Both the position numbers and the translations under genes were made by a program. Under the pieces are notes generated by a model. It did not search any database. It saw only the letters and a list, made by a program, of their open reading frames with translations, and had not been told where the DNA came from. 47,936 nucleotides of DNA from a virus. Taxonomy: Duplodnaviria > Caudoviricetes. Positions 2,751-39,268 of the stretch are shown piece by piece (within the stretch, counting starts at the first letter, position 1; each line of letters begins with the position of its first letter). The stretch covers positions 1-47,936 of IMG/VR virus record IMGVR_UViG_3300037467_000310; one strand, written 5' to 3'.

Positions 2751-4046
2751 TTGCGTCGTGTTGATGTTGAGACGTTGGATGCTTTGGGTGGTTCGAGGCC
2801 TGCTGACACGTTGACTGTGTGGGCTTGGCGGGCTGGCAAGCTGGTTGTGCCTGAGCCGTTGCAGGTCAAGGACTGGTCCTTTGATGATGACGCCGGGGAC
2901 AGTGTGAAGGTTGGTCAGCGGATCAGCCTCACCGTGGCGGATCCTGACGGGACGCTTGGGGCTTGGCGGTTCGATGACCCGCTGGGTGTTGGCGGGACCC
3001 GGTTGCAGATCATCTATAACGTGGGTGGTTCCGGGGCGATCAATTATGGGTGGTTCCGGATCACAGGTAATTCGCCCACGGAGTTCCGTGAGTCTCGGGT
3101 AATTAACGAGTACGGCTACATCGAACCCGACGGTTCACTTCCACCGCATAAACGCCGCGTGTTCATCCAAACGGCTGTCGTGAAGTTGGACGCCGTTGAC
3201 CTTACCGGGGACGTTGACCGGGACCGTTTGCAAGCCCCCGAGTCTCCGAAGGTTGGGGCCACGGTCGTTAGCGAATTCAAGCGGTTCACGGCCCGTTACT
3301 TCCCTACCATTGTTGATGATGGTGTTGTTGACACTGGGGTGTCGCGGCAGTTGGTGTATGACAAGGAACGCCTCGAAGCGTGCCAGGATCTTCTCAGCCG
3401 TGTGTCTGCCCGTTACCGGATGGGCGGCGACGGGGAAGCGCACATTTACCCGCAACGTGGTACGTCGGTTCTGAGGATTGAACCTAACGCTGGTCTTGTG
3501 TCCGTGTCGCGGGATCAGTCTATTGATGGTTTGTATAACCGGTGGGTTGTTGAGGGTAAGAACGTCGCTACCGGGGATCCTGTGTTTGGTGTTTCCGATA
3601 TTGAGTCGGGCCCGTTGAAGTATGGTGGCCCGCACGGTCAAGTGCCGTTCTTTTACAGCTCTGAGATGATCACGACTGTTGCGCAGGCGACAACGTACGC
3701 GCAGGAACTCAGGGACAAGTTCCTTGGTTCACTCGCGGTGGAGTTGTCGGTTGAGACGATCCCCCGCCCTGAGTTGCAAGCGGGCGACCGGGTTGAGATT
3801 GGTTGCCCTGTCACTGCCGGTCACGTCGTGTACCTGCCCGGTGATATCACTTCGATCAAACGATCCGGTGACACACTCCCACGCGGAACAACCCTCACAG
3901 TGTCTTGCTCGTACACGGATGTCCTTGCCGCTTTGGATCGTACTGAGTGGGCTAAGTGGATCACAGGCACGATGCCTGAGTTGACGTGGGATCTTATGCC
4001 AACGAGTTGGGGGCAGTTGCCGCCTATTACTTGGTCTAACGTTTAG
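2751..4046 (+). CDS. Minor tail protein (baseplate hub-like)
   Basis: 431 aa, second gene after TMP, GGAG RBS, C-terminal 'PELQAGDRV' typical of hub proteins. Confidence 0.75.
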   Translation: MRRVDVETLDALGGSRPADTLTVWAWRAGKLVVPEPLQVKDWSFDDDAGDSVKVGQRISLTVADPDGTLGAWRFDDPLGVGGTRLQIIYNVGGSGAINYGWFRITGNSPTEFRESRVINEYGYIEPDGSLPPHKRRVFIQTAVVKLDAVDLTGDVDRDRLQAPESPKVGATVVSEFKRFTARYFPTIVDDGVVDTGVSRQLVYDKERLEACQDLLSRVSARYRMGGDGEAHIYPQRGTSVLRIEPNAGLVSVSRDQSIDGLYNRWVVEGKNVATGDPVFGVSDIESGPLKYGGPHGQVPFFYSSEMITTVAQATTYAQELRDKFLGSLAVELSVETIPRPELQAGDRVEIGCPVTAGHVVYLPGDITSIKRSGDTLPRGTTLTVSCSYTDVLAALDRTEWAKWITGTMPELTWDLMPTSWGQLPPITWSNV

Positions 4047-10950: not shown

Positions 10951-11579
10951 AGTGACCGCTCCCTACGGATCTTTGCCGCAAGCCCGCGCCTGTCTTGGGT
11001 GAAGCCGTTGCGGCGCAACACAGCCCCCACAGTATTTACCCGGACCCCGTGGCGCTCAGCAATGGATCGAACAGTCTCGCCTTCATTGGCAGACTTGATA
11101 ATGTCAGCGTCTCTACTAGCGTTCGCCTCGGCCAGCTTTTGCACCCGAGACTTCGCACCTTTGGTTGCTGCACCGTTGGCATTGGCTTTGGCATTGCCGG
11201 ATGTACGCATTGCTTCCCAGTCATCTCGGTTTTGCAGCGCGGTCCTGGCTTTGGCTGATCGTTCAGGTGAGCAGATTGATACGCCGTAGGCGGGCAGCCC
11301 GGCGAGTTCCCGTAGTTCGGCGGGGCTTATTTCGTGCGCGCGACTAGTGTGTCCGGCTAGTACTTTGTAAGGCCCTGCCCCGCACCATGGGCACATCTGC
11401 GCTTCGATAGCGCGGAGGACAATGTGCGGCTCGATCCGCATGACGGATCCGTACGTGCCGGCTGCTAGCTCTGATGGCTGGTGCAGGGAGTTGTGGTCCG
11501 CCATGCTTCTTGACCAGCTCTGCCCGTTGCGGCTACCGAAGCTACCCGGCAGCGTGCGGACGTTGGTATCATTGGTCAT
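10947..11579 (-). CDS. DNA-binding protein with Ros/MucR-like zinc finger and C-terminal HTH
   Basis: CPWC-x10-H-x4-H-'ISPAELRELAGLP'; C-terminal 'TVRSIAERHGVRVNTVGAVLRR'. Confidence 0.65.
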   Translation of the reverse strand: MTNDTNVRTLPGSFGSRNGQSWSRSMADHNSLHQPSELAAGTYGSVMRIEPHIVLRAIEAQMCPWCGAGPYKVLAGHTSRAHEISPAELRELAGLPAYGVSICSPERSAKARTALQNRDDWEAMRTSGNAKANANGAATKGAKSRVQKLAEANASRDADIIKSANEGETVRSIAERHGVRVNTVGAVLRRNGFTQDRRGLAAKIRRERSL

Positions 11580-11636
11580 ATCGACTCCTAGAAAGTCGGT
11601 CGCACCCCTGGATGTTCACAGCATCGCAGGGGTTTT
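11580..11636 (-). promoter_or_regulatory. Structured 5' leader, family 1 copy A
   Basis: ACCCCTG-C-GATG/CATC-CAGGGGT hairpin plus CGACT/AGTCG hairpin over the GGAG RBS; homologous to 11950..12007. Confidence 0.75.
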
Positions 11637-11655
11637 ATTTTTGTGGATCAGTTCA

Positions 11656-11949: not shown

Positions 11950-12007
11950 AAAAGCCCCCGCGATGTAGTGAGCATCCGGAGGCGTGACCGACTGAGTTGG
12001 AGTCGAT
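11950..12007 (+). promoter_or_regulatory. Structured 5' leader, family 1 copy B
   Basis: GCCCCCG-C-GATG/CATC-CGGAGGC hairpin plus CGACT/AGTCG hairpin over the RBS. Confidence 0.75.
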
Positions 12008-12478
12008 ATGAACTACCCTACCCTCGAAGAAAAGTTCTGGGCAAACGTTCGCAAGGCTGACGGCTGCTGGGAGTGGATGGGCAGCAAGATCAGGGGCCAC
12101 GGACGCGTCTCAGCACCGCGGACCGTCTACGCTCATCGCTTGTCCTACGAGCTACACAAGGGGCCGATTCCCCAGGGCCTGGAGATCGACCACATGTGCC
12201 ACAACAGGGCGTGCGTCAACCCAGAACATCTCCGCGCTGTCACTGATAAGCAGAACAACGAGAACCGCGCAGGAGCCAACCCGAACAGTAAGTCAGGCGT
12301 CCGGGGAGTGCACTGGCGTCCTGATGTGAAGAAGTGGCAGGTCGTCATCCATGCGGCAGGGAAGAAATACCATGTCGGCTACTTCGTGGATCTAGCGGAA
12401 GCCGGAGCGGCGGCGGTCGCTAAACGGAATGAACTGTTTACGCATAACGATGTGGACCGACTGCCGAAAGCTGCCTGA
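12008..12478 (+). CDS. Free-standing HNH homing endonuclease
   Basis: 'CWEW', 'AHRLSY', 'IDHMCHNRACVNPEHL', AP2-like C-terminus 'SGVRGVHW'. Confidence 0.92.
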   Translation: MNYPTLEEKFWANVRKADGCWEWMGSKIRGHGRVSAPRTVYAHRLSYELHKGPIPQGLEIDHMCHNRACVNPEHLRAVTDKQNNENRAGANPNSKSGVRGVHWRPDVKKWQVVIHAAGKKYHVGYFVDLAEAGAAAVAKRNELFTHNDVDRLPKAA

Positions 12479-17154: not shown

Positions 17155-17630
17155 GCGTCCACGTGTTTCAGGAACGTCTTCTCTGGGCGAAGGTCAACAA
17201 GACTGACACGTGCTGGGAATGGACTGCCAGTAAGAACTCAAATGGATACGGCAAGTTCGTTGTATTCACCGATGGCAAGCATCGTTCAATGCTCGCCCAC
17301 CGCGTCACTTACCAGATGCTTGTGGGCGAGATACCAGAAGGCGCGTCGATCGATCACATCTGTCATAACCCCAGCTGCGTAAACCCTGACCATCTGCGGC
17401 CAGCCTCCGCGAAGCAGAACCTGGAGAACCGAAGGTCCGCGAACAGCAACTCTGTCTCCGGAGTGCGTGGAGTCTCGTGGTCCAAGCGCAGCAGGAAGTG
17501 GCGGACAACTGTGATGCATCACGGGCGCCAGCATTCCGCCGGGAACCACGACGATCTTTCAGAGGCTGAAGCCGCGGTTATTGAACTTCGCAATCGCCTC
17601 CATACATACAACGACGTTGACCGGCACTGA
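17151..17630 (+). CDS. Free-standing HNH homing endonuclease (paralog of 12008..12478)
   Basis: 'CWEW','AHRVTY','IDHICHNPSCVNPDHL','SGVRGVSW','NDVDR'. Confidence 0.92.
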   Translation: MSVHVFQERLLWAKVNKTDTCWEWTASKNSNGYGKFVVFTDGKHRSMLAHRVTYQMLVGEIPEGASIDHICHNPSCVNPDHLRPASAKQNLENRRSANSNSVSGVRGVSWSKRSRKWRTTVMHHGRQHSAGNHDDLSEAEAAVIELRNRLHTYNDVDRH

Positions 17631-17635
17631 ACACC

Positions 17636-17866
17636 ATGCTGCTCTACACACTCGAAGACCTCGCAGCCTTGTTCAAAGTCAGCCGGTCAACGATCTACCG
17701 AAGACGAAAACAAGACAACTGGCCCCATTTGCAGATCGGGTCAGAGTTCCGGTTCACACCCGAAGACGTAGAGAAAATCATTGCCCTCTACCGCAAAGAA
17801 ACCCCTGCCAAAGAAACCCGGTCACGCCCCAACGTCGGCACTAAAGCGAAACGGAGAAACCAATGA
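17636..17866 (+). CDS. Excisionase-like HTH protein
   Basis: 'YTLEDLAALFKVSRSTIYR...IGSEFRFTPEDV'. Confidence 0.75.
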   Translation: MLLYTLEDLAALFKVSRSTIYRRRKQDNWPHLQIGSEFRFTPEDVEKIIALYRKETPAKETRSRPNVGTKAKRRNQ

Positions 17867-22345: not shown

Positions 22346-22370
22346 CCCAACCAGCTAAGGGAGTGAACGC

Positions 22371-22520
22371 ATGAGCCTCAAAGACACCATGGCCGACAAC
22401 CTCGCCAACATCCGCCAATGGCACGAACGCAACCACCACAGCGCTACGTGGGCTACATGCGTTCACTCCCCCTGCAACGTCACCACAACCACCTTCCGCA
22501 ACAACTGGGACCAACCATGA
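22371..22520 (+). CDS. 49-aa hypothetical protein
   Basis: AAGGGAG RBS; read by hand. Confidence 0.5.
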   Translation: MSLKDTMADNLANIRQWHERNHHSATWATCVHSPCNVTTTTFRNNWDQP

Positions 22521-25787: not shown

Positions 25788-25849
25788 AATGGATACTAAT
25801 CGGCCCGGTAGTTGAGCATCCCGGACCCCGAGCATCTAAGAAGCCCACC

Positions 25850-25984
25850 ATGAGCGCAACAACCCTACGAGAACTCGCCAGCATCGTAGACGGCCTGGAC
25901 GAAGACCACCACGACTACCGGGAAGTCCGGGCCGCGAAACGCCTGATCCACGACCTACTCAAAGACGCAGAGGACCACACATGA
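25850..25984 (+). CDS. 44-aa hypothetical protein
   Basis: First ORF after operator; read by hand. Confidence 0.5.
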   Translation: MSATTLRELASIVDGLDEDHHDYREVRAAKRLIHDLLKDAEDHT

Positions 25985-27691: not shown

Positions 27692-28485
27692 GTTGCAAGT
27701 GCGGGAACGTGACCACGGATGGTATCTGGTTGTGCACGCCGTGTGGTGACGCGTTTGAGGTGCGGTTGGGTGAGGTCGCTGGTGTGGTGGCTGAGGTTGA
27801 GCAGGTCATCCCACGGCTGACGTTGACCGCTACGTATGGTGAGCGCATGGGCGGCAGTAAAGCCCTTCACGCGCCCGCACCTGTCAGTGTGGATGCCGTG
27901 TCGAGCCTGGACGAGTTGCAACGGTTCCTACTCAACACTGCACTCCGGATTGCTAGTCAGAGTAACCCGTTGCATGGGCACGGATCCGGTGACATTGCAG
28001 ACTACCTCGCCGGGAACATGCGCCGGATCAAGACACTCTCCAACGCGCACGACCTACAAGTGCAGCTCAACAAACTACTCAACACCTGCGAAAACGTAGT
28101 CCGCGTAATTGAACAGCGCGTGTTTGCCGGTCGGTGCGCCGAATGCGAAACCGACCTCTACGCGGTCAAAGGCCAACCCGAAGCACGCTGCTCGACTTGC
28201 GGCACCACATACGAAGTCCTCAAATGGCGGGCCCACGCAAAAACCGCACTCAACTACTACATCGGCACACCAGCAGAACTATCCCGCGCACTCGCAGCAC
28301 CCGAATACGGAATCAACATCACCGTAGACCGCATCTGGCGATGGGGAAACCGCAACAAACTCGAACGAGCCAACGACCAACACGACCCACAAGGCCAACC
28401 GCTAAAACCCAAATACCGGCTATCAGACGTACTCGACCTCCACCACAAAGCCAAGAAAAAACCAATCGACGGGACAGCAGCATGA
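27688..28485 (+). CDS. Zn-finger/HTH protein (late-regulator position)
   Basis: CKC..CTPC, CAEC..CSTC, C-terminal 'IWRWGNR...YRLSDVLDL'. Confidence 0.65.
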   Translation: MSCKCGNVTTDGIWLCTPCGDAFEVRLGEVAGVVAEVEQVIPRLTLTATYGERMGGSKALHAPAPVSVDAVSSLDELQRFLLNTALRIASQSNPLHGHGSGDIADYLAGNMRRIKTLSNAHDLQVQLNKLLNTCENVVRVIEQRVFAGRCAECETDLYAVKGQPEARCSTCGTTYEVLKWRAHAKTALNYYIGTPAELSRALAAPEYGINITVDRIWRWGNRNKLERANDQHDPQGQPLKPKYRLSDVLDLHHKAKKKPIDGTAA

Positions 28486-28697
28486 GCGCCGATGTTGTTA
28501 ATCACCCGCGGCATTACACCGGACACCCCAGCGGCATTGAGTGTATCCAGATAACTGAGCATATGGGGTTCAACCTCGGCAACGCGCTCAAATACATCTG
28601 GCGGTGTGATCTGAAAGCTGACGCCATCGAAGACTTGGAGAAGGCGAAGTGGTATATCGAACGTGAGATAGCTAAGCGTCGAAACCAACCTACTTGA
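28482..28697 (+). CDS. DUF3310-family protein
   Basis: 'DVVNHPRHY...IECI...GNALKYIWR...EDLEKAKWY'. Confidence 0.85.
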   Translation: MSADVVNHPRHYTGHPSGIECIQITEHMGFNLGNALKYIWRCDLKADAIEDLEKAKWYIEREIAKRRNQPT

Positions 28698-28744
28698 AAA
28701 TTAAGTAGAAACACCTTGCAATCAAGTAGGTTGTCGAGTATTCT
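28690..28744 (+). promoter_or_regulatory. Tandem 19-bp operators (28690, 28711) over promoter TTGCAA-17-TATTCT
   Basis: CTACTTGAAAATTAAGTAG and ACACCTTGCAATCAAGTAG; -35 at 28716, -10 at 28739. Confidence 0.75.
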
Positions 28745-28763
28745 GTGAATAGTGGATCAATAG

Positions 28764-28870
28764 CTTCTCCGGTAGCTAGGAAGTCCGCACCACCGCAAGG
28801 CCCGAATGGAACTCCGCGTCGAACATGCGGAGACTGCGTCGAAAAGCAGGCTTCCAGTCGGGCCTTTTGC
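28764..28870 (+). ncRNA. Structured leader/ncRNA: GUAGCU-loop hairpin plus three-way junction with two GUCGAA loops
   Basis: AGGCCCGA.TGGAA/TTCCA.TCGGGCCT closing stem; CTCCGC/GCGGAG and CTGC/GCAG hairpins; followed by TTTT. Confidence 0.6.
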
Positions 28871-28895
28871 GTACCCACGCACGGGAGGCCCCACC

Positions 28896-29180
28896 ATGGC
28901 TGCTGATCTGGACAAACCCACCCTCAACGCATCCCACCGGTGTGACGCGTGCGGCAGTCGAGCGTATGTGCGGGTCAACATCGAAACTGGGATCAACGAA
29001 GCCGGCTACGTCGACAATGGTGAACTGTTCTGGTGTCGTCATCACGCCAATGAGCACATGCCCGTGATCAAAGCCCGCTGCAACGTCCTTCACCTGTTGG
29101 ACGAAACCCGGTTCCTCACCGAACACATCAAAGATGACCACTGGGTTGAGGGTCAAGCAGCTAAGAAACCAGGAACATGA
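28896..29180 (+). CDS. Small Cys/His protein homologous to a conserved actinobacterial chromosomal family (DUF7455-like)
   Basis: 'RCDACGSRAYVRV...GELFWCRHHA..H...DET'; GGGAGG RBS. Confidence 0.65.
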   Translation: MAADLDKPTLNASHRCDACGSRAYVRVNIETGINEAGYVDNGELFWCRHHANEHMPVIKARCNVLHLLDETRFLTEHIKDDHWVEGQAAKKPGT

Positions 29181-29362
29181 CCTACAAGCACACGCCGAGT
29201 CTCCGCACCATAGCCGAGAACGCCGACGCCGAACTTCTCACCGGCTGCTACACCACACTCAACGCCGCGCTCGACGGCCTACAAACCCAACCAGCAAGGT
29301 CCGCGATCATCCGCGCACTCCAAAACATCAACGGCGCCCGAAAAAACATCGGACCCGCATAA
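29177..29362 (+). CDS. Hypothetical protein
   Basis: ATGA overlap. Confidence 0.55.
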   Translation: MTYKHTPSLRTIAENADAELLTGCYTTLNAALDGLQTQPARSAIIRALQNINGARKNIGPA

Positions 29363-29385
29363 CAAACCACACCATAGGAGCAGAT

Positions 29386-29550
29386 ATGGCCCGCACGTTC
29401 GGATACAAAGACGTTCACAACTGGAAAGTAGTGAACAACGCTGGCAAAACCTTCCGCGACAACGAAGGCAAGCCGCTCAATCACTTCGACGGTTACCGCA
29501 CCGCCAACGCCGCAGCAACCAAGCTCGGCGGAACGGCGGTACGTGTCTAA
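29386..29550 (+). CDS. 54-aa hypothetical protein
   Basis: AGGAG RBS. Confidence 0.6.
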   Translation: MARTFGYKDVHNWKVVNNAGKTFRDNEGKPLNHFDGYRTANAAATKLGGTAVRV

Positions 29551-29774
29551 TGGCGACGCAAGTAGAAATAGTCAACCCCAAACTTGAATGGCACGAAACC
29601 CTAGGCCTCGTGTTTTCCGCGCTCATCGGCCTCGCCGTGCGTGTTCTGATCATCTGGTGGGCCATCGCGTCATGGGCGCCTGAACTTGGGCTCACATACT
29701 GGCAACTCTTCCTTCCCGTGGTAGCCCTCCGCGAACTCATCCTTCCCGGCTCGATCAGGCGCACAGCCAAATAG
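29550..29774 (+). CDS. Small membrane protein
   Basis: Two hydrophobic segments; 'LGLTYWQ' motif. Confidence 0.65.
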   Translation: MATQVEIVNPKLEWHETLGLVFSALIGLAVRVLIIWWAIASWAPELGLTYWQLFLPVVALRELILPGSIRRTAK

Positions 29775-29776
29775 AT

Positions 29777-30037
29777 TTCCTGCACATGGTTAAGCGTGGC
29801 GACGTACCCCCTGGTTTCCGCCAACGTCAAGCCCGACCCGCTGCTCATCGGTGATGGGCTGCCATGTGCAGGAACAAACTTGATTGGCCTAGGTCTAGGT
29901 AAGAACTGCACATAGGAAAGAACCAGCTTGGGTACGGTGCAGCCGCCAATCAGTAAACTTCCCGGCCAGACCATTAGGTGCTGAGGGAAGATCACCTGCC
30001 CTCCCCGGGCTCATGTAACGATCCTGGGGCTCGGGCA
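29777..30037 (+). ncRNA. Unknown structured RNA(s) upstream of tRNA block
   Basis: 13-bp stem TTCCTGCACATGG/CCATGTGCAGGAA closing two hairpins; TGATTGGC/GCCAATCA with inner CTGCAC/GTGCAG; CTTCCC/GGGAAG; TGCCC/GGGCA; no credible ORF. Confidence 0.5.
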
Positions 30038-30107
30038 CGGGCTGAACGAATACGCGGCTTAATCGCAGGCGTGCAGGAGTTCAGCAGGTTCGATTCCTGC
30101 CAGCCCA
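30038..30107 (+). ncRNA. tRNA-like element (acceptor and T-arm, no canonical D/anticodon arms)
   Basis: GGGCTG/CAGCCC stem, perfect GCAGG-TTCGATT-CCTGC T-arm. Confidence 0.6.
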
Positions 30108-30112
30108 CTCGC

Positions 30113-30186
30113 ATCGTCTTGGTGTAGTGGTAGCCCATCGGTCTCCAAAACCGAAAGCGCGGGTTCGATTCCCGCAGACTTTGCCA
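30113..30186 (+). tRNA. tRNA-Trp(CCA), encoded CCA end, two acceptor mismatches
   Basis: TCGGT-CTCCAAA-ACCGA anticodon arm, GCGGG-TTCGATT-CCCGC T-arm, G73. Confidence 0.85.
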
Positions 30187-30319
30187 AAACGTACCCGAAA
30201 CGTATAGCTCCCACGGGAGAGCATCAGCCGGGAACGCAACACCGGAACTTACAGACCAAGTTCACCGGAAGCACCAAAGAACGGTCACCTTTACAACCCA
30301 TGAGCAAGGGGCAAAGAGC

Positions 30320-30520
30320 ATGAGCAGAGCCAAAGGCTGCATAATCAGCCGAGTCATGAACGAAGGCGACCAAGCCGACCGCGAAGCACTCCAAACCCTG
30401 CTCAACTCCGACGCAACAAACATCGGCGTCGCACGCACACTCACCGACGCGGGCGTTCCACTATCGGAACACGCGATACGCAGGCACCGGAAATCTGACT
30501 GCTCATGCGGGTGGCTCTAA
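30320..30520 (+). CDS. Small hypothetical protein ('IRRHR..CSC')
   Basis: Abuts exonuclease gene. Confidence 0.65.
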   Translation: MSRAKGCIISRVMNEGDQADREALQTLLNSDATNIGVARTLTDAGVPLSEHAIRRHRKSDCSCGWL

Positions 30521-31321
30521 ATGGGTGCCCTCGCGAAACGGTTAGCGCCGAAGATCGCACCCTCCGCTGCCAAGCAGGTCCGGATCCTCACGCTTGATAT
30601 TGAGAACGCCCCGAACCTCGCCCACGTGTGGGGTCTGTTCAATCAGAACATCAGCCTCTCCCAGTTGCAGGAAACCGCGACCGTCATATCCGTAGCCGCG
30701 AAATGGTACAGCGACAAAGAAGTTCTGTTCTTTAGCGACCACCACGACGGTCACGCCGAGATGATCACTAAGATCCACGCGCTCGTCTCCGAAGCTGACC
30801 TGATCGTCGGATACAACAGTGCCGGGTTTGACATGAAACACCTCAACCGCGAATTCATCCTCGCCGGCCTGAACCCGCCTGCACCGTACAAGAACGTGGA
30901 CCTGCTCCAGACAGTCCGTAAGCAGTTCAAGTTCGCTTCCGGGAAACTTGACCACGTCGCCCAGCAGCTCGGGCTTGGTAAGAAAACCAGCCACATGGGT
31001 CACGAACTATGGGTACGGTGTATGGCCGGTGATGACAAAGCGTGGGAACTAATGCGGAAGTACAACATGCAAGACGTTGTACTCACCGAGAAACTGTACG
31101 ACCGGCTGCGCGCATGGATCCCGAACCACCCGCACCTGAGCATGTACACAGGCGAGGCATGGGGCTGCCCAGTCTGCGGCAACAAAGACCTCTCCAAGTT
31201 CCGGGCAGGCACCTCATACGCCAACGTACAGCGATACCGCATGTACCAATGCACGTGCGGCCACTGGGTACGCGGAACCAAGAAACTCCAAGACGCCACA
31301 CAAACCAGGAGCGCACGATGA
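30521..31321 (+). CDS. RNase H-fold / DEDD-like 3'-5' exonuclease with C-terminal zinc ribbon
   Basis: 'LDIE', 'GYNSAGFD', 'YNMQDV', CPVC...CTC. Confidence 0.85.
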   Translation: MGALAKRLAPKIAPSAAKQVRILTLDIENAPNLAHVWGLFNQNISLSQLQETATVISVAAKWYSDKEVLFFSDHHDGHAEMITKIHALVSEADLIVGYNSAGFDMKHLNREFILAGLNPPAPYKNVDLLQTVRKQFKFASGKLDHVAQQLGLGKKTSHMGHELWVRCMAGDDKAWELMRKYNMQDVVLTEKLYDRLRAWIPNHPHLSMYTGEAWGCPVCGNKDLSKFRAGTSYANVQRYRMYQCTCGHWVRGTKKLQDATQTRSAR

Positions 31322-31478
31322 GAATTGGCAACTGGCCGGATCCGATGTGAGACGCCCACTGCTCTATCACCGCCCGCGTCGCTGGTTGAGGACGTGGAAG
31401 TAGCCGTACGGTGACATCCACGAATGCGCACGTACGGCAACACAAATAAAACATCATCATGTCAATAAGGAGAACAGC

Positions 31479-31694
31479 ATGCCCCGCATCGCAGTCAGCC
31501 CATCAGATCTTGATATTCCAATCGCGTTCTACGATGACGCTACCAAGTGGGTCGTAGACGACCATGAGCGCCTACACATCATTGGCGCCAATGGCAACTT
31601 GGCCTCGTACAACCGAGGAAGTTGGGCAGCCGTCCAGTTCTCACCTTGCGTTGGAGGGCCCGACCTGTGCGCCGAATCCGAGGCGCAATCTTAG
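31479..31694 (+). CDS. Hypothetical protein
   Basis: TAAGGAG RBS. Confidence 0.65.
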   Translation: MPRIAVSPSDLDIPIAFYDDATKWVVDDHERLHIIGANGNLASYNRGSWAAVQFSPCVGGPDLCAESEAQS

Positions 31695-31781
31695 ACAGAT
31701 CACACTGCGTTCCTAGGAGAAGCAGTCGGCAACCCACAACTAAACAGCGCTGACCGTTGTACATGAGCAACGGTCAGGCAT

Positions 31782-31854
31782 GGGTTTCTAGTCCAACGGC
31801 AGAGACGGCAGCTTCAAAACCTGCACAGTCCCGGTTCGAATCCGGGGAAACCCA
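31782..31854 (+). tRNA. tRNA-Leu(CAA), short variable arm, C31-C39 mismatch
   Basis: GGGTTTC/GAAACCC acceptor, A73, anticodon arm GCAGC-TTCAAAA-CCTGC. Confidence 0.75.
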
Positions 31855-31859
31855 CGCAA

Positions 31860-31930
31860 GGCGATATGGGCGAGCGGCTAGCCGGTTGTCTGCAAAACAG
31901 CACAGACCGGTTCGACTCCGGTTATCGCTT
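31860..31930 (+). tRNA. tRNA-Cys(GCA)
   Basis: GGCGATA/TATCGCT, GTTGT-CTGCAAA-ACAGC, U73. Confidence 0.9.
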
Positions 31931-31936
31931 CGAAAT

Positions 31937-32017
31937 GGAATGTACCCCAACGGTGGGAAGCTGTCTTGAAAACAGTGGCCGGTGAAACGGTAGCGGGTTC
32001 GACTCCTGTGCATTCCG
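31937..32017 (+). tRNA. tRNA-Ser(TGA)
   Basis: GGAATGT/GCATTCC, GCTGT-CTTGAAA-ACAGT, long variable arm, G73. Confidence 0.88.
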
Positions 32018-32030
32018 CGCTATTCGATAC

Positions 32031-32103
32031 GGGAGTAGAAGAGGCAAGGTGCCAGCGCTGACTGTAAATCAGTGCACGGTTGGTTCGATTCCAACTGCTC
32101 CCA
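32031..32103 (+). tRNA. tRNA-Tyr(GTA), non-canonical D and variable arms
   Basis: GGGAGTA/TGCTCCC, GCTGA-CTGTAAA-TCAGT, A73. Confidence 0.75.
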
Positions 32104-32299
32104 CAGCGAAAGCATGACGGCAGGTAGGACCGCATGGGTGGCTACCGCAGCAGTGGACACGCTGCCACGTAGGTCATGTGAGTAGGCACCCGACGCCTCT
32201 GCCGGACATTGACTGCGTGCAGATCAAGACTCGATAAGCGCCGGGAATCTTTGCCCTTATTCGTAGTTGTGCCCACGAATCAGAACAACCAGACAGTAG

Positions 32300-32779
32300 G
32301 TGTTCGTCATGCTCACTGGTCAGGTAGGGCTCGTAGCGGACAAACGATTCTGGATGGGCCGTGCAATACTCCGCATCACACGATGGCAATACCACCACTG
32401 CATCATCGCGACCAGTGACACGCACTGCATCAGCTCCGAACCAGGCGGCACACGACGCCGGTTGATAAGCGACTACACCAACATTGCCTGGTCCAACTAT
32501 GCGATGACCGAGAAACAAGCACACCTTGTTGCCGGGATAGCAGAACACTCCATCGGCGTCCGCTATGACTACCTCTCCTGTGTCGCACACGCTGTTGCAG
32601 CCATCACACGCATCGACACGCCACTGTGGATCCAGACGTGGCTCGCTCAACGCGCACCCACCACATGCAGTGCACTCGCCCAAGTAGCAGTCAACGCGGC
32701 AGGGCTACGAACACCACACGCACCACTACCCACACCCAACGACTGGCACCTACTGTGCCGGGCACGAGGATGGGCCTGA
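32300..32779 (+). CDS. Permuted papain-like (YiiX/YebB-type NlpC/P60) protein
   Basis: His before Cys order: 'YHHCII...GVRYDY...TCSAL...PTPND'. Confidence 0.65.
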   Translation: MFVMLTGQVGLVADKRFWMGRAILRITRWQYHHCIIATSDTHCISSEPGGTRRRLISDYTNIAWSNYAMTEKQAHLVAGIAEHSIGVRYDYLSCVAHAVAAITRIDTPLWIQTWLAQRAPTTCSALAQVAVNAAGLRTPHAPLPTPNDWHLLCRARGWA

Positions 32780-39122: not shown

Positions 39123-39193
39123 GTGGAGTTGGTGAAGTGGTATCACGTCGGTCTCCAAAACCGAAGTCGCAGGTTCGATTCCTGCACGCTGCG
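39123..39193 (+). tRNA. tRNA-Trp(CCA), second copy, in head module
   Basis: GTGA/TCAC D-arm, TCGGT-CTCCAAA-ACCGA, GCAGG-TTCGATT-CCTGC, G73; weak acceptor stem. Confidence 0.85.
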
Positions 39194-39268
39194 CTTTCCT
39201 ATTCCGGGATGGATGAGGAAGAGCAAGACCAGCCGTGATGGCTAAGAAAACAATCAGATCAGGAGGCC

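Follow-up and report, generated by a model that had tools for sequence, protein, structure and literature searches.

The block at positions 29777 to 30319 of a 47,936-nt stretch of viral DNA, called the window below, is a string of small folded RNA modules swapped among related viruses and not one large RNA. Phages are known to carry RNAs of unknown function in gene-free tRNA islands; here such an island resolves into exchangeable units, and two of them, a three-way-junction RNA (D1) and a tRNA-like element with a 6-bp acceptor (TLE), have comparative support as uncatalogued families. Taken to its limit, this picture would be one of a recombining array of small-RNA cassettes, in which a new three-way-junction RNA, bearing its loop on either arm, would control late translation by kissing a hairpin at a ribosome-binding site, and in which 6-bp-acceptor tRNA mimics would act as decoys for host defences that attack tRNAs. 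As a complete account we regard it as unlikely; if true, the array would be the RNA counterpart of a mosaic gene region in Arthrobacter-type temperate phages. D1 is a precise and cheap test case, with an 8-nt loop, one named site and arm-swapped forms that show which parts matter. Since D1 occurs in prophages of sequenced Micrococcaceae and a TLE variant occurs in a cultured phage, the function of such RNAs is directly testable.

The island and its modules

With ends that overlap (the repeats are spaced 46,031 nt apart), the window represents the nearly complete genome, ~46.0 kb in length, of a temperate phage that encodes integrase, terminase, portal and capsid proteins. Among named relatives, the nearest are a prophage of Arthrobacter (L001, whose neighbouring exonuclease is 88% identical) and Arthrobacter phages with the same leader motif, so that Arthrobacter or a relative is the likely host. 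The block is flanked on its 5′ side by a 74-aa ORF ending at 29774 and on its 3′ side by a 66-aa ORF starting at 30320. The latter is followed by an RNase_H_2/DnaQ-like exonuclease gene (30521..31321, + strand), whose slot is taken by an MRE11-like metallophosphoesterase in some relatives, then by more tRNA genes and by terminase and portal. The first gene past the island (30320..30520, + strand) encodes a conserved protein with an invariant C...RH...CxC in the alignment; it has no match in Pfam or PHROG, and a feature-level comparison gave a lead to Mu Gp27-like clusters (score 0.90). Upstream of the block lie operator-like repeats (28690) and a terminator-like hairpin (28798-28870, z -5.26), and a sigma-70 scan of 28400-32600 found no promoter. 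We infer a late-operon position from this gene order, with the block placed after the operator-like repeats and terminator-like hairpin and before terminase and portal. The operator-like near-palindrome, CTACTTGA-N3-TCAAGTAG, is found five times in the window (11779, 11909, 15335, 25769 and 28690). Two further structured segments were seen elsewhere: a 15-bp perfect inverted repeat (22359-22470, z -5.84), which starts directly after a stop codon and spans a Shine-Dalgarno sequence and an AUG AGC start, and a long hairpin (17613-17692, z -5.06), which runs from the end of an HNH gene into the start of the gene that follows.

The earlier note on this DNA was right that structured non-coding sequence adjoins tRNA genes here. 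Its description of a ~540-nt ORF-free block holds for the + strand, which has no ORF of at least 50 aa, but not for the - strand, where five ORFs of 51-172 aa overlap the block. Similarly, the claim of dense structure stands for D1 and for hairpins H3 and H4, but not for domain 2 (z -0.47) or the 3′ 134 nt (z -1.04), which fold no better than shuffled sequences; the z-score of the whole 543-nt block is only -2.28. Both hairpins were borne out, H3 at 29958..29990 (+ strand, z -2.24) and H4 at 29997..30037 (+ strand, z -3.13), the latter being a module that lies directly 5′ of a tRNA or TLE and holds a second CUYAU motif. In domain 2 (29881..29952, + strand) the proposed 8-bp closing stem is present, but the fold is no more stable than shuffles; the only homologs are this phage's own records, and the segment is unsupported as a conserved RNA. 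The remaining modules, H5 and H6 (30190..30290, + strand), are small and recurrent, with nhmmer matches and weak folding (z -1.04).

Loci of relatives were retrieved through the neighbouring exonuclease, and the same slot held a gene-free island of differing content, 230-750 nt long in related Arthrobacter-type temperate phages. Some of the 25 islands compared were collected through the neighbouring gene and others through patterns for D1 or the TLE, and modules were counted with simple patterns: H3 was present in 2 islands, H4 in 5, the TLE in 11, H5 in 5, H6 in 11 and a pseudoknot-like module in 12. ARAGORN found a tRNA in 4 of 24 related islands. Module order and content vary between close relatives, minimal islands consist of D1 and ~120 nt (L211, L340, L265), and a module of the second tRNA island of this phage (32031-32260) appears in the first island of L014. 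Near-constant across islands are just D1 (29777-29874) and UGAGC(A/G) beside the downstream Shine-Dalgarno sequence. As the modules are shuffled independently, a single conserved large fold is ruled out. The likeness to GOLLD or ROOL raised earlier did not survive this comparison, since an Rfam check that included GOLLD, ROOL and C4 was negative and the modules recur in 2-12 of 25 islands independently of one another. At gathering and E-value thresholds Rfam recognized only tRNAs in the block, and a blastn comparison with 50,697 annotated phages gave tRNA-to-tRNA or chance matches only.

The pseudoknot-like module, in which a hairpin loop GCCAU/GUCAU pairs with downstream AUGGC/AUGAC across a second hairpin, is absent in this phage and mostly stands just 5′ of a tRNA or TLE (L001, L011, L013, L091, L095, L191, L296, L409, L389 and L397-L399). 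It has no Rfam match, and a ribozyme reading was rejected by eye, as its topology is unlike that of HDV-like or pistol folds. In the second tRNA island of the window, a tRNA-Tyr-like gene that ARAGORN did not call (32031-32103, Rfam 30 bits) is followed by a module of ~150 nt (32104-32260) that recurs in the first island of L014. A further hairpin, whose loop contains CAUG, lies 5′ of tRNAs or TLEs (window 31748-31779; ~1293-1320 in L397/L398, D1 orientation), and this loop is inverted between the near-identical L397 and L398. HNH genes inserted at the 3′ end of islands carry their own hairpin leader (L191 ~1625-1655, L245 ~540-562, L424 ~938-968), with a loop ending in UGAG-C in L191 and L245.

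Two RNA families within the island

Judged by its pattern of covariation, D1 (29777..29874, + strand) is a real RNA family that is uncatalogued in Rfam, where it had no match. The three-way junction closed by a 13-bp helix, P1, was confirmed as noted earlier (z -5.19, with 0 of 200 shuffles equally stable), and its closing repeat is one of just two perfect inverted repeats of at least 12 bp (span 62-140 nt) in the genome. G-U pairs in P1 favour the + strand. Members of the family are 94-112 nt long and share the junction GG-UNAA ... CAAGC ... GCUG-CC and the internal loop AYGU/UUC, with the junction strands and both internal-loop sides invariant. When 8 sequences were aligned with MAFFT, 93% of cells were paired and 15 of 32 pairs had two-sided changes, while slid controls were 32-46% paired. 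A model, R1, was trained on 8 sequences, and 11 further sequences were aligned to it; in this alignment, which is fitted to the model, 89% of cells were paired and 19 of 32 pairs were changed on both sides, far above shuffled and slid controls. The count from MAFFT alone (8 sequences) agrees with the fitted one. Among the non-training sequences the closing helix was 98% paired and the loop-closing helix 100%, and lower arm 2 reached only 40% because a subgroup pairs in another register. The closing helix measures 11-14 bp in all 20 loci and starts 2-3 nt past a stop triplet in 17 of them. In L017 and L020, it stands behind a promoter-like and terminator-like segment with no intervening ORF, so the stop-codon position may be mere compaction.

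The apical loop of D1 reads CUGCUCAU (29841..29848, + strand), with the family consensus CYGCUCA(U) on a covarying stem. Patterns that left the loop free gave 192 matches, in searches that covered half of the metagenome collection, and all 21 with at least nine further closing pairs, which represent 17 distinct loci, carry C[UC]GCUCAU; two other loci (L406 and L420) read CUGCUCAG. A second form, type II, has the same junction and the same loop on the opposite arm with respect to type I, with the internal-loop strands flipped, and R1 sees it weakly (12-26 bits). Thus, the loop is retained while its stem covaries, even when moved between arms. The weight given earlier to UGCUCA in this loop was justified by its near-invariance on a covarying stem. 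The other proposed loop, CCCCUGG, is not a loop: pairing probabilities place its first C and final GG in the ACC/GGU stem of a variable stem-loop, ACC-CCCU-GGU (29806..29815, + strand), where CCCU alone is open. In homologs this part reads CCCU, CAAA, CAUA, AGUGAU or longer inserts.

A search with R1 of 151 genomes of the host family and 151 of the genus gave strong matches solely in G001, G134 and G225, where D1 is present in prophages of sequenced Micrococcaceae, and weak ones of 20-29 bits. A genome scan with the D1 pattern returned three matches, all in unrelated coding sequence. Neither D1 nor the 6-bp-acceptor phage element is described in the literature searched, including the available part of PMC2864571; supplementary catalogues (Weinberg 2010, 2017; large viral RNA screens) could hold them.

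The tRNA-like element (30039..30108, + strand) and the tRNA-Trp(CCA) behind it (30113..30186, + strand) were both present as the first inspection had proposed. The TLE, supported by pattern and covariation, has a canonical T-arm and a 6-bp acceptor GGGCUG/CAGCCC followed by A and C; its middle part contains neither a D-arm nor an anticodon arm. Its pattern had 41 viral matches, 27 of them with 4-5 T-stem pairs; this pattern fixes the acceptor, and the 41 include this phage as well as duplicates, with one sequence present in four copies. When phage loci were searched without this constraint, the compensatory acceptors found were GGACUG/CAGUCC, GGGAUG/CAUCCC and GGGUAG/CUAUCC, the second of which is annotated as 'tRNA-OTHER' in phage Hestia. 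Among seven close members, 5 of 18 pairs have two-sided changes, and the middle stem and T-stem covary. On this comparative evidence, the TLE is a member of an uncatalogued phage family with a 6-bp acceptor and T-arm; it could equally be numbered with an unpaired 1-72 position above six pairs, together with C73.

As a canonical tRNA the TLE lacks the 7-bp acceptor, the D-arm and the anticodon arm, is not called by ARAGORN and scores 15.2 bits as tRNA-Sec against a cut-off of 47; in related loci, 2 of 20 TLEs exceed the Rfam tRNA cut-off. It is best read as a non-decoding tRNA mimic in the cassette. A tmRNA reading was rejected because G3-U70 and a tag frame are missing; the acceptor has 6 bp, the element is 70 nt long and ARAGORN found no tmRNA in the window. 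A Y RNA of the YrlA kind was likewise rejected since the genome has no Ro60 gene (no PF05731 match, control genomes being positive), the element is unpermuted and GNCGAA is absent. A 7-bp acceptor is a major determinant for RNase P (PMC4201824, in part), so a 6-bp stem may be bound yet left unprocessed.

In the tRNA-Trp (ARAGORN; Rfam 53.4 bits) the CCA end is encoded, and positions 2:71 and 3:70 are unpaired. L001 has a diverged tRNA-Trp (3570-3645) that is unpaired at the same positions, and such genes (the one in the window and that of L001; cf. L095 and L397) keep A1-U72, G73 and CCA; from this comparison, the shared unpaired positions of diverged phage tRNA-Trp genes may be selected. A second tRNA-Trp(CCA) lies at 39123-39194, between a minor head gene and the gene after it, an arrangement shared with phage Hestia. 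Moreover, one TLE variant (L013 3640-3705; L409 1794-1860) has a D-arm and a GAGA tetraloop that replaces the anticodon loop, and contains 10 nt that are perfectly complementary to the D1 loop of type I together with its closing pair.

A candidate target of the D1 loop

The candidate target is UGAGCA, presented in a weak hairpin CCC-AUGAGCAA-GGG (30297..30310, + strand) over the Shine-Dalgarno sequence of the ORF at 30320. UGAGC(A/G) stands just 5′ of the Shine-Dalgarno sequence at the 3′ end of the island in 28 of 28 D1 loci (the L398 site, AUGAGCG, was read by hand, as the script chose a wrong one), mostly in a weak CCC/GGG hairpin whose loop is predicted to be open. The base after UGAGC is A in 14/14 loci with a U-loop and in 12/14 with a C-loop, the latter giving a C-A mismatch with the loop; UGAGCG occurs only in L248 and L398, both phages with the CCGCUCAU loop. 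The preceding base is A in only about half of the loci, and the core shared by loop and site is 5-6 bp. All 28 loci thus hold a 5-7-bp complement to the D1 loop at the ribosome-binding site, without loop-target covariation: the duplex energy of cognate pairs equalled that of permuted ones (P 0.53, or 0.57 for longer stretches, with the L398 site mis-assigned). No signal was found for an anti-Shine-Dalgarno role of the D1 variable arm or of an invariant UUCC. A second match to the loop is the AUG AGC that opens the 66-aa gene. Against pairing with the loop, the first gene past the island in L406 reads CGAGCA.

Loci were also picked solely by the exonuclease (at least 84% identity), leaving 11 distinct informative ones after the own-phage record, one duplicate and one truncated locus were dropped. 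Ten of these have a D1-family RNA, the same ten have UGAGC at the ribosome-binding site, and L021 has neither; since the loci are related, these are not ten independent events. The site is retained where the first gene is not homologous (L014, L095, L399) and where it follows an inserted HNH gene (L191, L245, L424). In two distant phages, Footloose and phiPsal1, similar genes are preceded by a gene-free gap, but D1 and the UGAGC site are both missing. Across the genome, UGAGC precedes the Shine-Dalgarno sequence at 19 of 1110 candidate starts against 10.2 expected (rank 29 of 1002); with this weak enrichment and essentially one site per genome, a general start-associated motif was rejected.

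The D1 fold is conserved, its loop constant, the modules shuffled, and loop and site co-occur. From the co-conservation of the 5-7-bp complement, we hypothesize that loop and site pair; both could be conserved by descent or for separate reasons. We tentatively propose that the CYGCUCA(U) loop pairs with the UGAGC(A/G) loop by the next gene's Shine-Dalgarno sequence and so damps translation of the first late gene, a reading that is possible, though we would not call it probable. The cassette would be transcribed at the head of the late operon, and its precursor cut into units by RNase P at the true tRNA and possibly by RNase E at linkers such as AAACUU. RNase P cleavage and 3′ trimming at a tRNA-Trp are established tRNA biology. 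The D1 loop would then kiss the UGAGC loop at the downstream ribosome-binding site, in the manner of the C4 b′ loop, with repression of the first late gene's translation as the outcome, and the 6-bp-acceptor element would be a non-decoding mimic within the same cassette. The distance from loop to site is 123-933 nt in 27 loci and 2.3 kb in the remaining one, which would allow pairing in cis on the precursor or in trans once it has been processed. The mycobacterial RNase E motif is RN-CNU, with C required at +1 (PMC10641625, in part); the AAACUU linkers 5′ of domain 2 and H3 fit it, and many D1/P1 flanks read RN-UUU, which makes the RNase E idea weak. [quoted passage not shown]

A different partner had been suggested earlier, namely leader family 1, on which D1 would act in trans through two loops. 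Leaders A (11576-11640, - strand) and B (11951-12010, + strand) are homologous two-hairpin leaders, and the family comprises 11 leaders, alike in fold, in 8 genomes (homologs in W01-W04, G002, G005 and G008). The second hairpin sequesters the Shine-Dalgarno sequence, and the loop of the first varies around GCNNNAAC. These leaders precede annotated HNH endonuclease genes in four cultured phages (W01-W04), have no Rfam match and are likely cis-acting. The quoted 6-7-nt complementarities do exist, and in leaders A and B they stand in the correct antiparallel order. The caution that they could be chance was well founded, as a 6-nt complement to D1 arose in 61-70% and a 7-nt one in 19-29% of 2000 resampled leaders. 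Neither leader site is conserved, CCAGGGG and UGAGC each being found in 1 of 11 leaders. CCAGGGG is the fully paired 3′ arm of leader A's stem and changes with its own 5′ arm; the D1 part said to face it is mostly paired and variable. Six of the leaders occur in W01-W04, phages where the best R1 match has E 0.07 and where, by eye, no loop-like word sits in a D1-like stem (a divergent type II might be missed). With matches of chance-level length and leaders in phages without D1, this partnership is barely credible. The leader at 25.8 kb (25796-25852) is of a different type: UUGAGCAU is kept in four RNA-bearing genomes (G000, G003, G004, G012), and the leader is near-identical in G003, G004 and G012 before different genes. 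On these grounds it is a possible second D1 target.

The constancy of the D1 loop between phages also suits a fixed partner in the host. One such account, unlikely in our view though not far-fetched, is that the cassette supplies decoys and replacements against host defences that attack tRNAs: its tRNAs would replace cut ones, the TLE would soak up enzymes that read the top half of a tRNA, and the D1 and H4 loops would imitate the initiator anticodon arm (GCUCAU). That arm of the host-genus tRNA-fMet reads CUGGGCUCAUAACCCAG and has GCUCAU in common with D1; H4 shares GGGCUCAU with it, and the H4 of L014 shares 11 nt. A 6-bp stem may be bound yet stay unprocessed, given the 7-bp determinant for RNase P (PMC4201824, in part), and toxSAS toxins inspect acceptor stems (PMC11559606, in part). 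However, the D1 loop has 8 nt with CAU at its 3′ edge and an anticodon loop has 7, H4 variants read CUUAU, and L406 and L420 lose CAU (CUGCUCAG) yet still match UGAGC; no defence or toxin partner was identified. Alternatively, D1 could be antisense to a fixed host RNA, e.g., the AUG-AGC start regions of host mRNAs, which would make the phage UGAGC incidental. Near-invariance in 28 loci without phage-specific covariation is what a target outside the phage would produce, and the loop complements AUGAGCRG. This account leaves the conserved phage site unexplained, and UGAGC is absent from the two host-genus tmRNAs checked; we consider it improbable.

About equally improbable is that the D1 loop and junction bind a phage or host protein, e.g., the 66-aa protein or the nuclease, as with the stable RNAs of other phage tRNA clusters. 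The invariant junction strands and internal-loop sides resemble protein-binding or tertiary motifs, and the island is syntenic with a small gene and a nuclease even in distant phages, but Footloose and phiPsal1 have similar downstream genes without D1 or the UGAGC site. The last account takes the block as one large RNA of the GOLLD/ROOL kind, joined by CUCAU-AUGAG kissing loops. Its location in a tRNA island and complementary loop words in several modules agree with this. The varying content and order of modules among close relatives, islands that amount to D1 and ~120 nt, and the absence of an Rfam match make it very unlikely; for the CAUG-loop module, the inversion between L397 and L398 also speaks against a directional kiss.

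Comparison with known systems

Like D1, C4 of P1/P7 (Rfam RF01695) and the CI RNA of P4 are small phage RNAs, comparable in size and built from a closing stem and two arms. They also resemble it in a proposed loop pairing by a ribosome-binding site and in having one conserved and one variable loop (PMC5320573 and PMC4825925, each in part). C4 has ~77-80 nt, a closing stem and two hairpin arms; D1 has this shape and is somewhat longer (94-112 nt). Both loops of C4 (a′ and b′) have targets, whereas D1 has one candidate target, and the variable loop of C4 changes with its target, whereas that of D1 has no conserved partner or matching change. Furthermore, C4 and CI lie by integrase and repressor genes and D1 before late genes, the closing stem starts with GGW in C4/CI and with UU in D1, and the D1 host group is actinobacterial. 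Both the position and the 5′ UU of D1 argue against C4-type RNase P processing at the closing stem and a role in lysogeny or immunity. The C4 models of Rfam did not match D1 at gathering or to E 10, nor any of 14 homolog loci to E 0.5.

RNA C and RNA D sit in the tRNA cluster of T4. They are late RNAs of unknown function (PMC9697503, in part) and, by description only, resemble the D1 cassette as small phage non-coding RNAs of the late class without known function; in contrast to them, the cassette consists of units that are shuffled among relatives, one of which has a candidate target. GOLLD and ROOL are also phage or prophage RNAs near tRNA islands. They are single large folds that form cages, with many GOLLD members above 800 nt (PMC12286853 and PMC5737381, each in part), whereas the block is built as a mosaic of modules of 30-110 nt and has no match in Rfam.

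The TLE shares with the tRNA-like domain of tmRNA an acceptor and T-arm without a D-stem. Its acceptor is of the tmRNA type minus G3-U70 (GGGAUG/CAUCCC in Hestia against GGGGAUG/CAUCUCC in the host genus), with 6 rather than 7 pairs, and it has no tag reading frame and 50-80 nt. The YrlA Y RNA, found in some actinophages, is likewise a tRNA mimic with a T-arm (PMC4201824, in part). The TLE differs from it in the ordinary order from 5′-acceptor to 3′-acceptor, in the absence of GNCGAA and in a genome without a Ro60/TROVE gene, which a YrlA RNA would have at a distance of at most 4 kb. Although the cassette fails membership of C4, GOLLD/ROOL, tmRNA and Y RNA, by analogy its D1 would work most like a C4/CI-type loop antisense RNA placed in a phage tRNA island.
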